From Candidatus Cloacimonadota bacterium (GTDB lineage: Bacteria > Cloacimonadota > Cloacimonadia > JGIOTU-2), in the NCBI GenBank assembly GCA_049903315.1, contig JBNGBT010000001.1, positions 288,001 to 352,000 of the forward strand: a stretch of 64,000 bases of DNA. The letters run 5' to 3'. Shown piece after piece: positions 56,724 to 64,000 of this stretch; position 1 is the first letter of the stretch; each line of letters begins with the position of its first letter. Below the pieces are notes generated by a model. That model had not been told where the DNA came from, ran no database searches, and saw only the letters and a program-made list of their open reading frames with translations. The position numbers were made by a program, and so were the translations under genes.

Positions 56724-59114
56724 TTATCGTAACTTCACGACCTTCCCGAAATGTTCATCGTTATTATTTATTTTATAGAAATATACACCCGTGCCCAATT
56801 CGTTGCCATTAGCATCCTTTCCATCCCATGTTGCTTCGAGAAAGCGGGGAAGCGAAGAAGCGCCAGAAGAAATTTCTAAATCCGATCCGCCAGCTGGCGG
56901 ACTAATGTCTAATTCTCTGACAAGTTGTCCTTTTATATTATAAATTTTGATTCGTGCTAATTCGTGTAAATTCGTGGTTAATGAAAACGATAACGTTGTC
57001 GATGTAGAGAAGGGATTAGGGTAGGAGGATAATGAAATTTCATTATTGTATATATTTTCATCATCGATCGATGTATTTATATTGTAAGAATAGATTGAAG
57101 CACACTCTTTTTGCGTGCTGATAAAATATGTATTGTTGTCTTGTGCATAAAAATTTAAAAGAGGACCCCAACTATTAAAATTGATATATTCAAAACTTTC
57201 AAGGTAACCTGAAGGATTACCGGATACATCAAATAAACCTAAAGAAAACTCATATACTTGAAACAGAATATCATCATTAATAAAGCTTGAATACAGAAAT
57301 GAGTTTTCTGTCGAAAATTGTTCTGTTAACTGAAAAGGGGTTTCAAATATATAGAATTTATCAAAGTTATCTGTGATATATGCATTGGTGTGTAAATAAT
57401 TACCAACCTTATTCATCAAAATGTGATAATTGGGACCAAAATTAGAAATTGTTTGCGCGAGGTCGGGCTCATTGTCTTCAAATCCTCCATAGATATACAA
57501 ATTTTGATAAGGTGAAGCGCTATCAAGTACATAGAAATACCCATCGTTAAATAGACCCTTGCCATTTGAAATATATGTTAACGCGTAGTCAAATAGTATT
57601 TCCGGGGTTGCCGGATCGGACATATCGTATTTTACTATTTTTTGATATGGACCAAACCACCACCAATAAAAGCAATATAACATATCCGGCTCATCTTCAT
57701 TAATAATAAGAACAGGGATCCCGAATCCACCCTCTGCTTCAAAATCAGATTGCAAAATTGGCTCATGAGGATTTGAAATATTATATAAACAGACTTTTAT
57801 TTCATTATTTCTATTAACATACGCGCTATACATTCTGTTCCCAATAAACTTGCTCCCGTAGGTTCTGCAACTGTCCAATAGTATTTTTTTAAGTTTCGGC
57901 ATATCAGTATTGGACAAATCATAGACATAAATGCCATCATTTACCATAGGAATAAAAAGATAATCATCATAGATACTAATATATTTATATCCTAATTGGT
58001 GGTTTGGATGTGTTTGTTCGTTATTTATAAATACCATTGTGCCATCATAAAAAGAGTATTTGAAAATTCCGGAATCGGGTGTGCCCCAGTATAACAAATT
58101 ATTATAGTATTTGATATTTGAATTTGTAATATATGAGGTGAGTCCTGAAAAGTTTTGCTGTTCTTCGGAGAGAGGACAAAAGGAACTAAAACATGGATTT
58201 GTAATATCGGTAATATCCACTACTTCTATTCCATCTGGTGGTTGTGGAATGATAATATAATTATCAAATCTGGTAAAATCTGCCCATTTACCGTACGATG
58301 TATAGGTATAATAATCTGTAATAAAATACCAATTATGAATATCGGATATATCCCAAAGTGCTAATGCTTCATCGCCTAATATTCCAACCGTAGTGCTGTC
58401 GATTTGCTGAATATAATTATATGTTGTAATAACAGAAGGAGTGTTGGTAAGATTGATCGTTGCTTCTATGAAAATGTTATTAATATCTGTTATGTTATAT
58501 ATTTCATAAAGAAGACTTCCATTACGAGAGGTCATGAAAAGAGAATCATTAATAGGGTAGGTTTGACAGCATATAGGCAGAGAATTAATTTCCTCAAAAT
58601 TTTCATGGTCAAGAACCAATAATGTGCCTGAAAATGAATTCTCATTATATTCACGACACATTAAATTGTCATTATAGAAGCCCAATTGATAAATTACTGA
58701 GTCATCAAAAAACAGCGAATCAACAATTATGGGATTATCAGGAGTTGTGACATCGATCTTGTATAAATAGGATCCTAAGAACAGAGACCAGGTTTGACTT
58801 GTTGTCGATGCTATATACACGAAGTTATCCTTTTTAGTAATCATATCTGTCATTCCAATAAAACCAATCGTCGCAATTCTTTCCAGGTTGCCTGTTGCAT
58901 TATCTATGCTTTGTATTTCAAGCCCATATCTGTTAACAATATACATATATGAGGAATCAATAATGATTCTATCATCTCCGCAATAATTTCCTCCAATTGC
59001 AAAATCGTTGATCTTTTCATAATTGAATTCAATAGCATATAAAAATTCTGGTAATATAAGTATAAAGAGGGTAAAAATAATTAATAAATTTATTTGTTTA
59101 TAGTGTTTAATCAT
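56724..59114 (-). CDS. Secreted LVIVD-repeat (beta-propeller) protein with FlgD/T9SS CTD
   Basis: Signal peptide; IDVTTPDNP, GIEVVDITDITNP, IYVYDLSNTDMP, YNISNPHEP; YPNPF..IYNIKGQLV..WDGKD..GVYFYK. Confidence 0.85.
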   Translation of the reverse strand: MIKHYKQINLLIIFTLFILILPEFLYAIEFNYEKINDFAIGGNYCGDDRIIIDSSYMYIVNRYGLEIQSIDNATGNLERIATIGFIGMTDMITKKDNFVYIASTTSQTWSLFLGSYLYKIDVTTPDNPIIVDSLFFDDSVIYQLGFYNDNLMCREYNENSFSGTLLVLDHENFEEINSLPICCQTYPINDSLFMTSRNGSLLYEIYNITDINNIFIEATINLTNTPSVITTYNYIQQIDSTTVGILGDEALALWDISDIHNWYFITDYYTYTSYGKWADFTRFDNYIIIPQPPDGIEVVDITDITNPCFSSFCPLSEEQQNFSGLTSYITNSNIKYYNNLLYWGTPDSGIFKYSFYDGTMVFINNEQTHPNHQLGYKYISIYDDYLFIPMVNDGIYVYDLSNTDMPKLKKILLDSCRTYGSKFIGNRMYSAYVNRNNEIKVCLYNISNPHEPILQSDFEAEGGFGIPVLIINEDEPDMLYCFYWWWFGPYQKIVKYDMSDPATPEILFDYALTYISNGKGLFNDGYFYVLDSASPYQNLYIYGGFEDNEPDLAQTISNFGPNYHILMNKVGNYLHTNAYITDNFDKFYIFETPFQLTEQFSTENSFLYSSFINDDILFQVYEFSLGLFDVSGNPSGYLESFEYINFNSWGPLLNFYAQDNNTYFISTQKECASIYSYNINTSIDDENIYNNEISLSSYPNPFSTSTTLSFSLTTNLHELARIKIYNIKGQLVRELDISPPAGGSDLEISSGASSLPRFLEATWDGKDANGNELGTGVYFYKINNNDEHFGKVVKLR

Positions 59115-59140
59115 ATTATACTCCTAAAATGTAATATTAT

Positions 59141-59166
59141 GGGGCAGAAGCAAAAACTTCTGCCCC
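59141..59166. terminator. Strong hairpin between the small secreted gene and the T9SS cargo gene
   Basis: GGGGCAGAAG-caaaaa-CTTCTGCCCC perfect 10-bp stem; poor U tract on the minus strand. Confidence 0.6.
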
Positions 59167-59175
59167 GAGGATATT

Positions 59176-59556
59176 TTATTGGTTAGGAGGTTCGGGCTCT
59201 CCCGGATCGGGCTCTTGACCAGTGGTTGGCAAATAGAGATGAACCGTGGTAAAAGGTGAAATGCCGCCAACTTCAGAATCTGAGCGATCACCTTGTTCTG
59301 CCGTTAATGACCATATTGGATACTCTTGAGAACAGTAAATATCTGGAAATGATTCTGTATAATAGCCAGTACCTGTTTCCGGAGTTTTTGAATCATATAG
59401 ATATGGTTGTTGTTCAGGGGTGTCTTGCCTGTATAGGTAAAGCGTTGGACCGCTCTTTAATACACCATGAACATATACATCTACTGATTGAGCCAATAAA
59501 TTTCCACCAATGAATAGTGTCGCTAATATCGCGAGTATCGCAATTTTTTTAAACAT
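59176..59556 (-). CDS. Small secreted protein with Pro-rich C-terminus
   Basis: Signal peptide ending LLA-Q; tail EPDPGEPEPPNQ; RBS GAGG. Confidence 0.8.
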   Translation of the reverse strand: MFKKIAILAILATLFIGGNLLAQSVDVYVHGVLKSGPTLYLYRQDTPEQQPYLYDSKTPETGTGYYTESFPDIYCSQEYPIWSLTAEQGDRSDSEVGGISPFTTVHLYLPTTGQEPDPGEPEPPNQ

Positions 59557-59959
59557 CGTTTTTACCTCTTAATTATTTTATTCCTTTATTCTACGTTTCC
59601 CCCTTTACTACAAAGGTAATTCGTAAAGGAGTATTCCCGGCAGTCTCAATAATCCATTTCATAATTTCCTTTCTACCATGTTCGAATTTCTTGTCAATAA
59701 GAAAACCTATCTGTTTTGGGAAGAACGATAGATAGGTCTGGTCAGGTGAATTTAGTTTTATGTATACATGTATTCAGGAAATGTAAACATTCCATTTTTA
59801 TTATTTTGCCCTTGCTTAATAATTTCATGCTACTATCCCCAAACCATGGTATTTCATGGCATACCTCAATTACTACGAACCAACTAAGTTGGATTCTGCT
59901 GCAGAACATCATTATCAAAATCTTCAACGTTTCATGGAGCCGGAGAAAACTCCCGCTAA

Positions 59960-60442
59960 TCATTCTTCTGGACGAAGAATGAATCGCGGGAGAGCCATGA
60001 TTGGGGTCTCTAAAATACCTCCGTACTCCTTGGTACTCATATTTTGCACCTCGTAACTTGCTGAAAATTGGACCTCTTTATCCAAGATTGAAGTCAGTGT
60101 TGTCTCAACTGCACGAGCATAAATAGGTTTTGTCAGATATCCTGCCGGATTCGTTTGCTTTGCTTCTTCCATGGTTTCTTCATCGTTGTAAGCAGACACG
60201 AATACTACAGGGACATCCTTACTGGTGCGAATCTGTCTCGCGGCTTCGATACCGTTGATCTGCCCGGCCAGGTTAATATCCATAAATATAAGATGCGGGT
60301 CAAAAGTTTTCGAAAGCTCGACAGCATGCTCGCCGCTTGCAGCAGTAACACATTCGTATGGTCCGAAACGTTGTATAAGATTTTTCAGATGCAGTGCGAT
60401 AATTGCTTCATCTTCAACGATCAATATTTTTTGTTTATTCAT
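59960..60442 (-). CDS. Single-domain response regulator (receiver)
   Basis: ILIVEDE, LIFMDINLAG..GIEAA, FVSAY, GYLTKP; likely start 60442. Confidence 0.88.
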   Translation of the reverse strand: MNKQKILIVEDEAIIALHLKNLIQRFGPYECVTAASGEHAVELSKTFDPHLIFMDINLAGQINGIEAARQIRTSKDVPVVFVSAYNDEETMEEAKQTNPAGYLTKPIYARAVETTLTSILDKEVQFSASYEVQNMSTKEYGGILETPIMALPRFILRPEE

Positions 60443-60464
60443 TATCTTATGATGTTTTTTATCC

Positions 60465-60575
60465 TTACGCTTTTCCCTCGACTGATTTCCTTTCATGTCC
60501 GAGGAAAACTTTTCCATCAGAGATTATTACTATATATTCTCCGCCATTGCCGTCATGTATTCTTTTAATAGTCAT
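60465..60575 (-). CDS. Micropeptide P3 (36 aa) MTIKRIHDGNGGEYIVIISDGKVFLGHERKSVEGKA
   Basis: RBS AAGGAG before ATG; paralogous to P1 and P2 with mostly synonymous differences; not in the ORF track. Confidence 0.75.
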   Translation of the reverse strand: MTIKRIHDGNGGEYIVIISDGKVFLGHERKSVEGKA

Positions 60576-60589
60576 GTTATTCTCCTTTA

Positions 60590-60874
60590 TTATGCTTTCA
60601 TTACGTGAACAGTACCATTCACTACGATCACAATGTACTTTTCACCATTTGGTCCAATTATAGTCGCATCGAATATAATTTCATCATTGCTATCAAATAC
60701 AAGCCCTATTACAACTGGATAGTCTGTGTTTTCATCTAAATATTGAGAGATGAATTCAGCATCATCCAGGTTGCATAAAGAACGCAATTCACTTGCTGTC
60801 ATTGCAAAAGCTACCGAATTAATTAATAACAAAAATACAAGTACACCTACTAACACTAATGTTTTCTTTTTCAT
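60590..60874 (-). CDS. Small secreted protein (94 aa) ending in GPNGEKYIVIVVNGTV
   Basis: Signal peptide MKKKTLVLV...AFA; RBS AAGGTGG; C-terminus resembles the micropeptides. Confidence 0.8.
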   Translation of the reverse strand: MKKKTLVLVGVLVFLLLINSVAFAMTASELRSLCNLDDAEFISQYLDENTDYPVVIGLVFDSNDEIIFDATIIGPNGEKYIVIVVNGTVHVMKA

Positions 60875-60898
60875 TTTACTTACCACCTTTCAGGTTAT

Positions 60899-61099
60899 TT
60901 ATTTATATATCATAAAAAGTGCCGATTTGTGACGACACCACTCAAAAAAGTTGAAAAAAAGTGAAAAAAATTCATTTGAGGTGACAGAATCCTTATGAAT
61001 TATCACATTTTTCTTCTCATGTCCGAGGAATACTTTTCCTTCAGAGATAATCACGATGTACTCTCCACCGTTTCCGTCATGAATTCTTTTAATAGTCAT
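60899..61099 (-). CDS. Micropeptide P2 (31-aa core, extended to 66 aa by an out-of-frame stop)
   Basis: MTIKRIHDGNGGEYIVIISEGKVFLGHEKKN; RBS AGGAG; extension reads through the repeated non-coding block. Confidence 0.7.
   Translation of the reverse strand: MTIKRIHDGNGGEYIVIISEGKVFLGHEKKNVIIHKDSVTSNEFFSLFFNFFEWCRHKSALFMIYK
60903..60960 (-). promoter_or_regulatory. Putative ECF-type promoter GTCACA-N16-GATATATA (copy 1)
   Basis: Minus strand ttgagtggtgtcGTCACAaatcggcactttttatGATATATA, just upstream of the 94-aa gene. Confidence 0.5.
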
Positions 61100-61201
61100 T
61101 TTATTCTCCTATTATTTTTTTAATTTGCTAAGTTCCAAATTATTGCCAGCCATTTTCATGTAATTTTTTATAATCACAAGAATCATTTCTCTAATTTTTA
61201 C

Positions 61202-61259
61202 TTATATATCATGAAAAGTGCCGATTTGTGACGACACCACTCAAAAAAGTTGAAAAAAA
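61202..61259 (-). promoter_or_regulatory. Putative ECF-type promoter (copy 2)
   Basis: Same block upstream of P2. Confidence 0.5.
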
Positions 61260-61294
61260 ATGAAAAAAGTTACATATGAGGTGACTAAACCTTA

Positions 61295-61399
61295 TTAATT
61301 TTTATTATTTTTCTTCTCATGTCCGAGAAATACTTTTCCTTCAGAGACAATAACAGTGTATTCTCCGCCATTGCCGTCAGGAAATCTTTTTATGGTCAT
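61295..61399 (-). CDS. Micropeptide P1 (34 aa) MTIKRFPDGNGGEYTVIVSEGKVFLGHEKKNNKN
   Basis: RBS AAGGAG; tandem TAA TAA stops; paralog of P2 and P3; not in the ORF track. Confidence 0.75.
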   Translation of the reverse strand: MTIKRFPDGNGGEYTVIVSEGKVFLGHEKKNNKN

Positions 61400-61654
61400 G
61401 GTGTTCTCCTTATCGTATTTTTGGGATTCATTTTGTATAATAGCCCTAAAATATTGACAGTTATTTTTAACTTTTCTTGGTACACATAAATTATAGATTT
61501 TATAATCTTATGATTTAAAAACATCGGTAACGCTCAAAAAAGTAAGAATGAGAATAGGCATTGAGGTCTTTTTTCTTGATCATCAAAAATTTCTTTCAAG
61601 TTAATTATTTCTTTAATGAATTGTGCAGATTGAGGTGAGATTGCTAAACATAAG

Positions 61655-62635
61655 ATGAAAAAAAAAGCTGATAATGATGCTGTTGTTCTGAAGAATTATC
61701 ATACTCTTGCCTACAATTATGCATTATACAAAGTTGGAAGTCTCGATGCAGCAGAGGATATAGCATCTCAGACGATTTATTCATATTTATTGAAAAGGGA
61801 AAAGATTGAAGAAAACAATGATGAGGGTTGGATTGTTAATACTAGTAAAAATTATTGTAATCAGTATTTTGATAGATTGAAGGCTGAAAAGAAATTGCAG
61901 AACGATATGGTTGGGAATATGGCAAGAGAACTGCAAACAAAAATATATGAGAGCCTTGATTTTGTTGATAATGAAAAAAACGAGCTCTTAGATGCCGTAA
62001 AAAATGCTAAAGAGACACTCACTTCCAAGGAACTTCAAACCTATATCTTATACCTTCAATGTGAAGCAAATGTACAGAGGATGGAAAAAATAATTGGTGA
62101 GTCCAATGAGGTTATCCGACAAAGGATCTCCAGGATCAATAGGAAAATAAAGGCAGAAACCTACAAAAAGCTTGGGGTAATAACCACCAAGAAAATATTA
62201 AGTCCTCAGATCAATGATATAATAAAAAAATTTCTTTTGCGATTTAAAAAGCATTTGGAAAATAATACACTGAATAAGATGTTTTATTATTTTTCGAAAA
62301 AAGATATTAGTAATTATAATCCCCAATTTAATATAAAAAAAGTATTGGATTATGAGGTAGTACTAGACGATGCAATATATACAATTCATGTAGTTTTTAC
62401 TAATACACAAGATGAGGATGAATCCTTCTATTTTTCGTTTACAGTGGAAAATAATTTTCTAAAAGTTCTTCAACCTCCCACACCTCACAGAGAACATTAT
62501 CAATTAAGCGGTGAAGATGCAGAAATACTTCTTACCTTATTAAAAAAATATCCCGAAGATAGTACAGGAGCACATCGTGTTCCCGATGAAGAACTTGTGC
62601 TTCTAAGAAGAATTCTTGGGGAAGAGGATGAATGA
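61655..62635 (+). CDS. ECF-like sigma-70 factor with a C-terminal extension of about 140 aa
   Basis: Region 2-like LAYNYALYKVGSLDAAEDIASQT..GWIVNTSKNYC; region 4-like LTSKELQTY..IIGESNEVIRQRISRINRKIK. Confidence 0.75.
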   Translation: MKKKADNDAVVLKNYHTLAYNYALYKVGSLDAAEDIASQTIYSYLLKREKIEENNDEGWIVNTSKNYCNQYFDRLKAEKKLQNDMVGNMARELQTKIYESLDFVDNEKNELLDAVKNAKETLTSKELQTYILYLQCEANVQRMEKIIGESNEVIRQRISRINRKIKAETYKKLGVITTKKILSPQINDIIKKFLLRFKKHLENNTLNKMFYYFSKKDISNYNPQFNIKKVLDYEVVLDDAIYTIHVVFTNTQDEDESFYFSFTVENNFLKVLQPPTPHREHYQLSGEDAEILLTLLKKYPEDSTGAHRVPDEELVLLRRILGEEDE

Positions 62636-62647
62636 GTTGTAATTACT

Positions 62648-64000
62648 TTAAAGCTTTTCTTTTAATCTTGAGAGGAAAGTAAGGGCTTCGATAGGGGTAA
62701 GTGCATTCACATCCAGATCTTTTAATTCTTCAATAAGAGCTCTTTCTTTACTTGTTTTCTGAGAGAGCACTTCGATAAAAGACGTTTGTTTGATCTCGGC
62801 TTTTTTTCTTTTTGTCTTCTCAAGAATGCTGGATTCGTTGAATTCACTTTTTTCGAGTTCTTCAAGGATTTCCTGCGCACGCTCAATGACCTTTTGAGGT
62901 ATACCTGCGAGTTTAGCGACCTGGATACCGTAACTCTGGTCCGCACTGCCGGGCACAACTTTTCTCAAAAAGATGATCCTGTCCTGATATTCTTTTGCAG
63001 TAATATTATAATTCTTCACACCTTTATACACATTGGAAAGCTCTGTAAGTTCATGATAATGCGTTGCAAAGAGCGTTTTTGCTGAGATCTTATTATTCTC
63101 ATGGAGGTATTCTACTACAGCCCAAGCAATGCTCAGTCCGTCAAAAGTGCTCGTACCTCGCCCGATTTCATCGAGGAGGACAACGCTGCGGGGAGTTGCA
63201 TTATGAAGTATATTAGCAGTTTCGATCATCTCTACCAGAAATGTACTCTGTCCAAGAGCCAGGTTGTCAGAAGCGCCCACACGGGTAAATATTTTATCAA
63301 CAATACCTATCTTTGCAGAAGCAGCAGGAATGAACGAGCCCATCTGTGCCATGATTATGATCAGACCGATCTGCCTTAAGTAAGTAGATTTTCCTGCCAT
63401 ATTCGGACCCGTGATAAGCAGTATGCGATCTGAAGAATTATTCAGAAATGTGTCATTAGGAATGAACTCGTTTCCTACAGAAAGTTTTTCTATGACCGGA
63501 TGCCGTCCTTCTTCGACATTTATCTCATGACCGTCATGAATTTCTGGTCGGATATAATGATTATAATATGCGATCTGAGAAAGGTTTGTGAGTACATCGA
63601 GAGTAGAGATAACCTCCGAAAATTGCTGAAATCGGGGAATGAAATTTTTCAGATTTTCCCGGATTTCAATGAAAAGTGCATATTCCAATTGTGTGCTGCG
63701 TTCTTCAGCACCGAGAACCTGATTCTCAAATTCCTTGAGCTCAGGAGTGATATATCGTTCCGCATTTACCAGTGTCTGCTTGCGAATATAATCTTCAGGG
63801 ACCTTATCGAGATATGATTTAGTAATCTCGATGTAATATCCGAATACACTATTATAACGCACTTTCAGCTTAGGAATATTCGTCTTTTCGATTTCTTTCT
63901 GTTCAAGTTCCGCAATCCATTTTTTGCCGGTTTTGCTCTTGCTCCTCAACTCATCCAGTTCTTGATTATAGCCTTCTTTGATTATTCCGCCGTCCTGCAA
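62648..64000 (-). CDS. mutS: DNA mismatch repair protein MutS (5' part outside window)
   Basis: GRHPVIE, ITGPNMAGKSTYLRQ, STFLVEM, LDEIGRGTST, FATHYHEL, SYGIQVAKLAG. Confidence 0.97.
   Translation of the reverse strand: MQDGGIIKEGYNQELDELRSKSKTGKKWIAELEQKEIEKTNIPKLKVRYNSVFGYYIEITKSYLDKVPEDYIRKQTLVNAERYITPELKEFENQVLGAEERSTQLEYALFIEIRENLKNFIPRFQQFSEVISTLDVLTNLSQIAYYNHYIRPEIHDGHEINVEEGRHPVIEKLSVGNEFIPNDTFLNNSSDRILLITGPNMAGKSTYLRQIGLIIIMAQMGSFIPAASAKIGIVDKIFTRVGASDNLALGQSTFLVEMIETANILHNATPRSVVLLDEIGRGTSTFDGLSIAWAVVEYLHENNKISAKTLFATHYHELTELSNVYKGVKNYNITAKEYQDRIIFLRKVVPGSADQSYGIQVAKLAGIPQKVIERAQEILEELEKSEFNESSILEKTKRKKAEIKQTSFIEVLSQKTSKERALIEELKDLDVNALTPIEALTFLSRLKEKL

Follow-up and report, generated by a model that had tools for sequence, protein, structure and literature searches.

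Which role do three very short, closely similar peptides play beside the gene of an extracytoplasmic function (ECF) sigma factor? The question is raised by a locus within a stretch of 64,000 nucleotides (nt) from a Candidatus Cloacimonadota bacterium (GenBank assembly GCA_049903315.1, contig JBNGBT010000001.1, positions 288,001 to 352,000; in the following called the window). Here, three small open reading frames (ORFs), P1 to P3, lie divergent from a sigma gene, together with the gene of a small secreted protein (in the following called the partner) and a receiver gene (Table 1). A first interpretation drawn from the letters alone (the sequence-only reading) had taken the peptides for cytoplasmic modulators or effectors of the sigma factor. 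It was right in that the peptide genes are under selection and belong with this sigma family, but it missed the role of the secreted protein as conserved partner and the origin of the peptides, which derive from the C-terminus of this protein.

Peptide genes and the tail of a secreted protein

All three ORFs were found on the minus strand where they had been reported, each with an AGGAG motif 6–7 nt 5′ of its ATG. Their description as peptides of about 35 amino acids fits P1 and P3, but not P2, which as encoded has 66 amino acids because the stop codon present in other copies is missing; its read-through crosses the promoter of the partner gene. Over their initial 30 codons, P2 and P3 differ at 13 sites, of which 12 are third codon positions, where the sequence-only reading had placed most of the differences, and the selection suspected from this pattern is also seen in the ratio of nonsynonymous to synonymous differences (pN/pS), which was 0.12, 0.19 and 0.05 for the three pairs in the window. 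Pooling 20 copies from the genus gave a pN/pS of 0.14, with frame +1 open in all 20 and stops in 6 to 20 of these copies in the other five frames. The ratio was 0.105 for the P3 orthologues (n = 10) and 0.20, at a pS of 0.61, for the copies outside the P3 slot (n = 10). By these measures, P1 to P3 are predicted genes under purifying selection. A conserved RNA as the source of the conservation was rejected, the selection being frame-specific and the one Rfam match sub-threshold. No family match was found for the peptides in Pfam or NCBIfam.

The P1–P3 profile aligned to the last 21 columns of the partner-family profile (probability 63%, E 7e-5). Aligned to the tail of their own partner, the peptides scored 40, versus 20 for shuffled peptides, and the peptides of the genus scored higher on genus tails (38.6 vs 31.5). 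Searching with the partner profile in family f8 and in metagenomes, we found unannotated ORFs of 23–27 amino acids (the 24-aa type) directly 3′ of the partner gene. These short ORFs align with P1–P3, occupy the same slot, nearly always occur with a receiver gene and have a pN/pS of 0.22 over 17 sequences. The peptides mostly carry a charge of about +1, the partner tails mostly one of −2 to −12. P1–P3 are signal-less homologues of the C-terminal β-meander of the partner.

Strong peptide copies in the genome of the window are just these three. The P-type profile matched 7 of the 232 genomes of the phylum, all of genus g1, and 12 strong matches lay at loci of the sigma factor and the secreted gene, which upholds the proposed link of the peptides to this sigma family. 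Among 185,579 species genomes, the peptide scan yielded four Cloacimonadota loci and one short match at chance level. A gammaproteobacterial match of 16 residues (L116) was set aside as chance, as were three weak matches in G002, which contain stops and lie at the ends of other genes. P3 is present with the secreted gene and the receiver gene in all 10 genus loci listed; P1 and P2 form a second group, located 5′ of the partner gene; several loci have kept it, and the P1 group spans five. The three-copy arrangement is a lineage-specific expansion next to a constant P3 slot.

The secreted protein interleaved with the peptides is present as first described. It belongs to a family of proteins of 60–95 amino acids with a signal-peptide-like start and a C-terminal β-meander, encoded beside the sigma gene. 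A basic N-terminus followed by a hydrophobic core, as in Sec signals, was recognized by a simple script in all 70 aligned members, and their mature chains are acidic, with a median charge of −9. Among 125 distinct, nearly full-length sigma sequences, 90 had enough flanking sequence, and a partner gene lay within 1.7 kb in 78 of these loci; for the loci picked by their sigma gene this was 62 of 74, a count that includes the training set. In the reverse direction, we took 20 partner matches from about 150 listed, none overlapping the sigma matches and thus out-of-sample, and found a family sigma gene within about 0.35 kb in 18 of them, two of these broken; near L166 and L169, none was found in the stretch examined. 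Sigma factor and secreted protein are thus inherited as a pair across Cloacimonadota, and the earlier statement that no anti-sigma gene is recognizable is probably wrong in function, the secreted protein being a conserved sigma partner throughout the phylum.

Partner profile matches occur in 111 and sigma family members in 77 of the 232 phylum genomes (the latter at E 1e-10), and the partner family has 139 representatives among 1.84 billion sequences. No Pfam match was found for the secreted protein, and a fold search with its model reached a Z of 3.7 at best, with no Foldseek match at E 0.001; a PepSY lead (atlas score 0.79) was not supported. The near-complete genome G138 (L156–L161) has 8 partner matches, at least 6 of them beside a family sigma gene and mostly before large secreted proteins. 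Two partner-family chains, P0105 and P0150, carry two meander copies. In family f5 (L010, L016, L125), genes resembling, by eye, those of radical SAM/SPASM proteins come next after the partner gene. A second, decayed cassette with a partner gene lacking the signal peptide lies 3′ of the sigma gene in L026 (6121–6585), L027 and L028 (2510–2913); in L026 and L027 a deletion joined the peptide to the tail of the receiver.

The sigma factor and its predicted complex with the partner

The ECF-like sigma gene divergent from the peptides is present as stated by the sequence-only reading. NCBIfam ECF models matched residues 6–170 below their cut-off (E 3e-8 to 1e-6; TIGR02937 E 1e-6), and the AlphaFold2 model (mean predicted local distance difference test, pLDDT, 72; predicted template modelling score 0.35) matches the solved structures of SigW, SigK, SigL and RpoE. 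With its sigma2 and sigma4 domains and its bipartite promoter, the protein shows the features of an ECF (sigma70 group 4) factor. Residues ~180–283 aligned with NTF2-like chains (VIA-align; Z 9.3–9.9, rmsd 2.5–3.7, 93–105 residues aligned); this domain has no Pfam match and is assigned by fold only, and an atlas search with the extension gave no usable match. The named relatives of this sigma factor come from Cloacimonadota, and G305 is nearly invariant (95% of 89 rows). Sigma factors of family f6 (L011, L012, L151–L154, L167–L176) have an extra N-terminal stretch of about 70 amino acids, in part a second match to the sigma2 region. In L041, L048, L122, L124, L127 and L145, two family sigma genes stand in tandem and share one partner gene.

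We predicted the complex of the sigma factor with the mature partner, using an 89-row alignment for each. The score was 0.80 (runs 0.80, 0.82 and 0.80), with 0.00 for the best control; of the solved pairs, 116 of 157 attained the pass mark, of the mismatched ones 2 of 215, numbers that are only a rough guide for the alignments used here. At least 57% of the contacts are common to the runs. On the partner side, the confident contacts are confined to mature residues 43–70, which is the segment copied by the peptides. On the sigma side they involve residues 177–179, the NTF2 sheet (231–259) and the tail (276–321), with strands 280–283 and 305–308 flanking the meander. Across the family, similarity of the sigma tail tracks partner similarity best (partial r 0.35), a mirror-tree correlation that is confounded by shared ancestry. 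The model supports binding of the partner by the sigma factor, and recall of a like complex is a less likely, though possible, source of the prediction because no solved relative of the partner was found. The suggestion of the sequence-only reading that the peptides bind the C-terminal extension gains indirect support, because the homologous partner tail is predicted to bind there.

Promoters, cargo genes and receiver

The duplicated promoter-like block noticed at first sight is real, 75 nt long and 95% identical between its copies. The consensus reads GAGTGG..GTCACA, followed after usually 16 nt (25 of 35 scored sites) by GA(T/C)AT. This motif was found in 40 of 92 upstream regions of partner genes; within the clade of this sigma factor, 36 of 40 rows have it 5′ of the secreted gene, other clades carrying other motifs (by a quick tree). 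A matrix scan of the genome of the window returned four strong sites (scores 37–43, the next being 19; two above 16 in one shuffle), two at this locus and two before cargo genes of a type IX secretion system (T9SS) kind. No high-scoring site was found for P1 in this genome; the decayed block 5′ of P1 is intact at the same place in G003. Among the 21 family genomes scanned, the exact pattern was present in 7, all sigma-bearing, missing from 2 sigma-bearing genomes, and found in 0 of the 12 without the sigma gene. Away from the sigma locus, 12 of 13 family sites precede, within about 0.6 kb, a gene judged by eye to encode a signal-peptide-like start. A housekeeping sigma70 promoter is disfavoured, as a generic scan gave 16 sites versus 15.5 expected and the motif class follows the sigma clade. 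Taken together, the secreted gene, the peptide ORFs and genes of large secreted cargo all have a conserved, putative bipartite promoter before them.

Control of the secreted-protein genes adjacent to the module, as suggested previously, is uncertain in this genome: no sigma-type site lies directly before the cassette in the window, whereas related cassettes (on C4 of the same genome and in L198) have one. A gene for SprA, the translocon of the T9SS, is present in the genome, and a C-terminal motif of the YPNPF type occurs in 14 long ORFs. Before the cargo cassettes lies a conserved leader of 195 nt (window 59556–59753, minus strand; G000:C4:35650–35840; L194, L198, L112) with a hairpin and a T run followed by a TTGACA-type site, possibly a terminator plus internal promoter or an attenuator. 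In L021 (G009:C2), the sigma gene is separated from the partner operon by two cargo genes and a small secreted gene, the promoter block being duplicated before both.

The last gene of the operon encodes a stand-alone receiver (REC) domain, as first read, with the acidic pair and the Asp, Ser and Lys motifs kept. Among 84 partner loci with 450 nt of downstream sequence, 26 have both peptide and receiver gene, 52 neither, 4 only the receiver and 2 only the peptide. A PAS-HATPase kinase gene follows 3′ of the receiver in some f8 loci (L044–L046, L049, L061), while none is adjacent in the window; for the one such kinase scanned, no HWE or HisKA_2 match was listed. A gene that by its motifs resembles mutS (window 62648–64000) converges on the sigma gene and is the same neighbour in most loci of the genus.

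Table 1 Features of the sigma–partner–peptide locus and its surroundings (window positions).
Feature	Positions	Strand	Details and basis
Sigma factor of the ECF type (326 aa) with sigma2/sigma4 and a C-terminal extension	61655–62635	+	NCBIfam ECF models, matches to solved ECF structures
NTF2/SnoaL-like domain, residues 184–279	62204–62491	+	Structural alignment
Sigma tail, residues 276–321	62480–62617	+	Strands 280–283 and 305–308 predicted to clamp the partner meander
Decayed promoter-block copy at sigma start, 5′ of P1	61605–61650 (approximate limits)	−	Repeat family D3, not a matrix hit
Peptide P1	61295–61399	−	34 aa, upstream-type copy
Predicted sigma-dependent promoter for P2	61206–61242	−	GTCACA, 16 nt, GATAT
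Peptide P2	60899–61099	−	31-aa core, read-through to 66 aa
Predicted sigma-dependent promoter of the secreted protein–P3–receiver operon	60907–60943	−	
Small signal-peptide protein (partner), 94 aa, acidic mature part	60590–60874	−	Family alignment, linkage to sigma
Three-strand meander at the C-terminus of the partner, the segment predicted to bind sigma	60593–60676	−	Interface, profile match, model strands
Peptide P3	60465–60575	−	36 aa, conserved operon-internal copy
Stand-alone receiver (REC) protein, 160 aa	59960–60442	−	PF00072 E 8e-23
Weak terminator-like hairpin over the receiver stop codon plus short T run	59950–59992	−	Inverted repeat I9, not in terminator scan
Neighbouring cargo cassette and possible target: a secreted protein of 126 aa and a protein of 796 aa that has a T9SS-type C-terminal domain	56724–59556	−	

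A proposed switch coupled to protein export and its alternatives

We consider it an even chance that this module is an export-coupled ligand switch acting on an ECF sigma factor, with non-exportable peptides as decoys. The sigma factor would transcribe its own ligand, the secreted partner, the meander of which is predicted to dock between two strands of the sigma tail on the NTF2-like face. Unexported precursor would bind the sigma factor in the cytoplasm, most likely damping it, and export by Sec would take the ligand away, so that cargo transcription would follow export capacity in a FlgM-like manner. A brake makes more sense here than activation because the presumed regulon is secreted cargo. 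Binding before export is favoured because no Opp-type importer was found in the six genomes searched and mature SHP or ComS has about a third of the length predicted for the ligand. P1–P3 correspond to the binding segment but lack both the signal peptide and the acidic region; they could not leave the cell, would occupy the same site and would give an input that is independent of export. Because the binding segment is kept while signal and acidic region are dropped, they most likely compete for this site. That they relieve the brake as competitors has slightly better than even chances; otherwise, with chances slightly short of even, they would form a standing brake. The co-transcribed receiver would tune, and probably gate, the peptide input, and extra peptide copies under their own promoters would raise the peptide dose.

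Several observations weigh against this export-coupled switch. The pLDDT of the partner in the complex is low (54–55), and the interface positions of the sigma factor show, on average, no higher conservation than its extension does elsewhere (0.35 vs 0.42). No partner gene lies inside 1.7 kb in 12 of the 74 sigma loci, the cognate preference in family f8 is marginal (41.1 vs 39.1, permutation p 0.053), and upstream peptide copies are broken in three related loci (G008, G009, L035). The co-occurrence of peptide and receiver comes mostly from one clade, so that the loci are not independent, and it could mean that the receiver is the partner of the peptide. Finally, we infer the binding of the peptides to the sigma factor from their homology with the partner tail; the sign of the regulation and the dwelling of the precursor in the cytoplasm are proposals.

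Quorum sensing by a peptide pheromone would also suit a layout that sets a receptor gene next to an autoregulated precursor gene and has secreted cargo for its targets: the secreted protein would be exported, its meander cut off and re-imported, and the sigma factor activated at high density for secreted enzymes, with P1–P3 as intracellular agonists or antagonists. The occurrence of several sigma–partner pairs per genome, as with the 8 partner matches of G138, is in line with it, and the predicted sigma–partner binding fits equally. We regard it as unlikely. A search of 6 sigma-bearing genomes that are 95–100% complete found the binding protein of Opp/Dpp importers (family 5, SBP_bac_5) in none of them, and SbmA, PTR2 or OPT were not found in the genome of the window, although another importer may exist; the loci, read by eye, have no conserved peptidase or transporter gene beside them; and the predicted ligand has 28 residues compared with 9–11 for mature SHP/ComS in the part of PMC7564271 consulted. 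Improbable to a similar degree is that the peptides never touch the sigma factor but are regulon members binding the receiver or the secreted family, the module being an ECF41-like sigma factor with a small-molecule-sensing domain. The presence of the peptides does track the receiver, their binding to the sigma factor is a matter of homology, and ECF41 SnoaL domains have been proposed to bind small ligands (PMC5766207, in part). On the other hand, the complex prediction passed against controls of 0.00 and involves the very segment homologous to the peptides, and linkage of partner and sigma genes is seen also in lineages without the receiver.

It is very unlikely that only P3 matters, P1 and P2 being decaying by-products of a tandem duplication of promoter plus peptide. 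The lost stop of P2, the decayed promoter of P1 and the broken upstream copies mentioned above speak for this; the low pN/pS of the ten copies outside the P3 slot and the persistence of the P1 group in five loci speak against it. For P3, such a history is compatible with the export-coupled switch.

FlgM, the anti-sigma factor of sigma28, is made by the regulon of its sigma factor, binds sigma2/sigma4, inhibits the sigma factor until it is exported and leaves by the flagellar type III system. The module proposed here would work like it, with a ligand from the sigma factor's own regulon removed by export, but has a Sec-type signal, predicted binding to a fused extension and signal-less decoy copies and is not a member of that system. 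RRNPP systems (Rgg/SHP, ComR/ComS) are alike in having a small exported precursor, with a predicted C-terminal ligand, encoded beside a cytoplasmic regulator. Their receptors are of the tetratricopeptide repeat (TPR) type, whereas the receptor here would be a sigma factor with an NTF2-like alpha/beta domain rather than TPR, in a diderm host, with no Opp/Ami-type importer found and a far longer ligand; it is not a member either. The general stress switch PhyR–NepR–EcfG likewise combines an ECF sigma factor, a small soluble protein and a receiver in one locus, and PhyR is the best NCBIfam model of the receiver, matched over its receiver part only (positions 137–250 of 258, 93 bits vs a cut-off of 240). 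An HWE/HisKA_2 kinase also belongs to that switch, to be compared with the kinase genes of some f8 loci described above. The receiver here, however, lacks a sigma-mimic domain, and the peptides, being predicted β-meanders, are unrelated to NepR, which is helical. PorXY–SigP of Porphyromonas gingivalis, in the part of its published description used here, also connects an ECF sigma factor and a response regulator with type IX secretion, the signal being a secreted protein, but there PorA acts via the two-component system on genes of T9SS components, whereas here the ligand is predicted to bind the sigma factor and the predicted targets are cargo.

Closest in architecture are ECF41 (M. tuberculosis SigJ, Ecf41Bli) and ECF56, ECF205, ECF294 and ECF295, which share sigma2/sigma4, an NTF2/SnoaL-like extension and the lack of a classical anti-sigma factor. 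ECF41 is characterized by the promoter TGTCACA-16-CGTC and a WLPEP motif in the sigma2–sigma4 linker (PMC3426412, in part). The −35 element GTCACA and the 16-nt spacer of our consensus resemble this promoter, but the −10 element is different, GA(T/C)AT, the WLPEP linker occurs in 0 of 89 rows of this sigma family, and SigJ-type models score far below cut-off. The genes behind the promoter here are those of a small secreted protein, peptides or signal-peptide cargo, and the additional tail would, by the prediction, bind a meander of a protein at a place other than the NTF2 pocket. Two defining ECF41 features are absent here, the WLPEP linker and the kind of gene behind the promoter. No published description of this module was found in the literature searched. 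Cloacimonadota are absent from the text of the 2021 ECF classification, and the portion of its supplement examined contained no match to 'Cloacimon' (PMC7826278); the remainder could bear on novelty.

The SigJ study was, in the part consulted, unable to identify the ligand of the SnoaL/NTF2-like extension (PMC5766207), and a review, also in part, calls the regulation of ECF56, 205, 294 and 295 still unresolved (PMC8999054). For a related architecture, the locus described here brings a genetically linked, predicted protein ligand together with natural minimal peptides of 24–36 amino acids that can be synthesized and tested. We tentatively propose, while holding it less probable than not, that the sigma tail is a lock completed by a β-meander key on a Sec-exported protein, such that the sigma factor would read the export state directly and signal-less copies of the key would override it under receiver control, a new mode of sigma control. 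If true, the paralogous sigma–key pairs would be phylum-wide switches for T9SS cargo, and the module would be a Sec-coupled counterpart of FlgM with built-in decoys. It would also name a main regulator of secreted proteins, with many peptide-gated sigma pairs, for an uncultured anaerobic phylum. Peptides copying the tail of an exported protein suggest a new way to tie gene expression to protein export.

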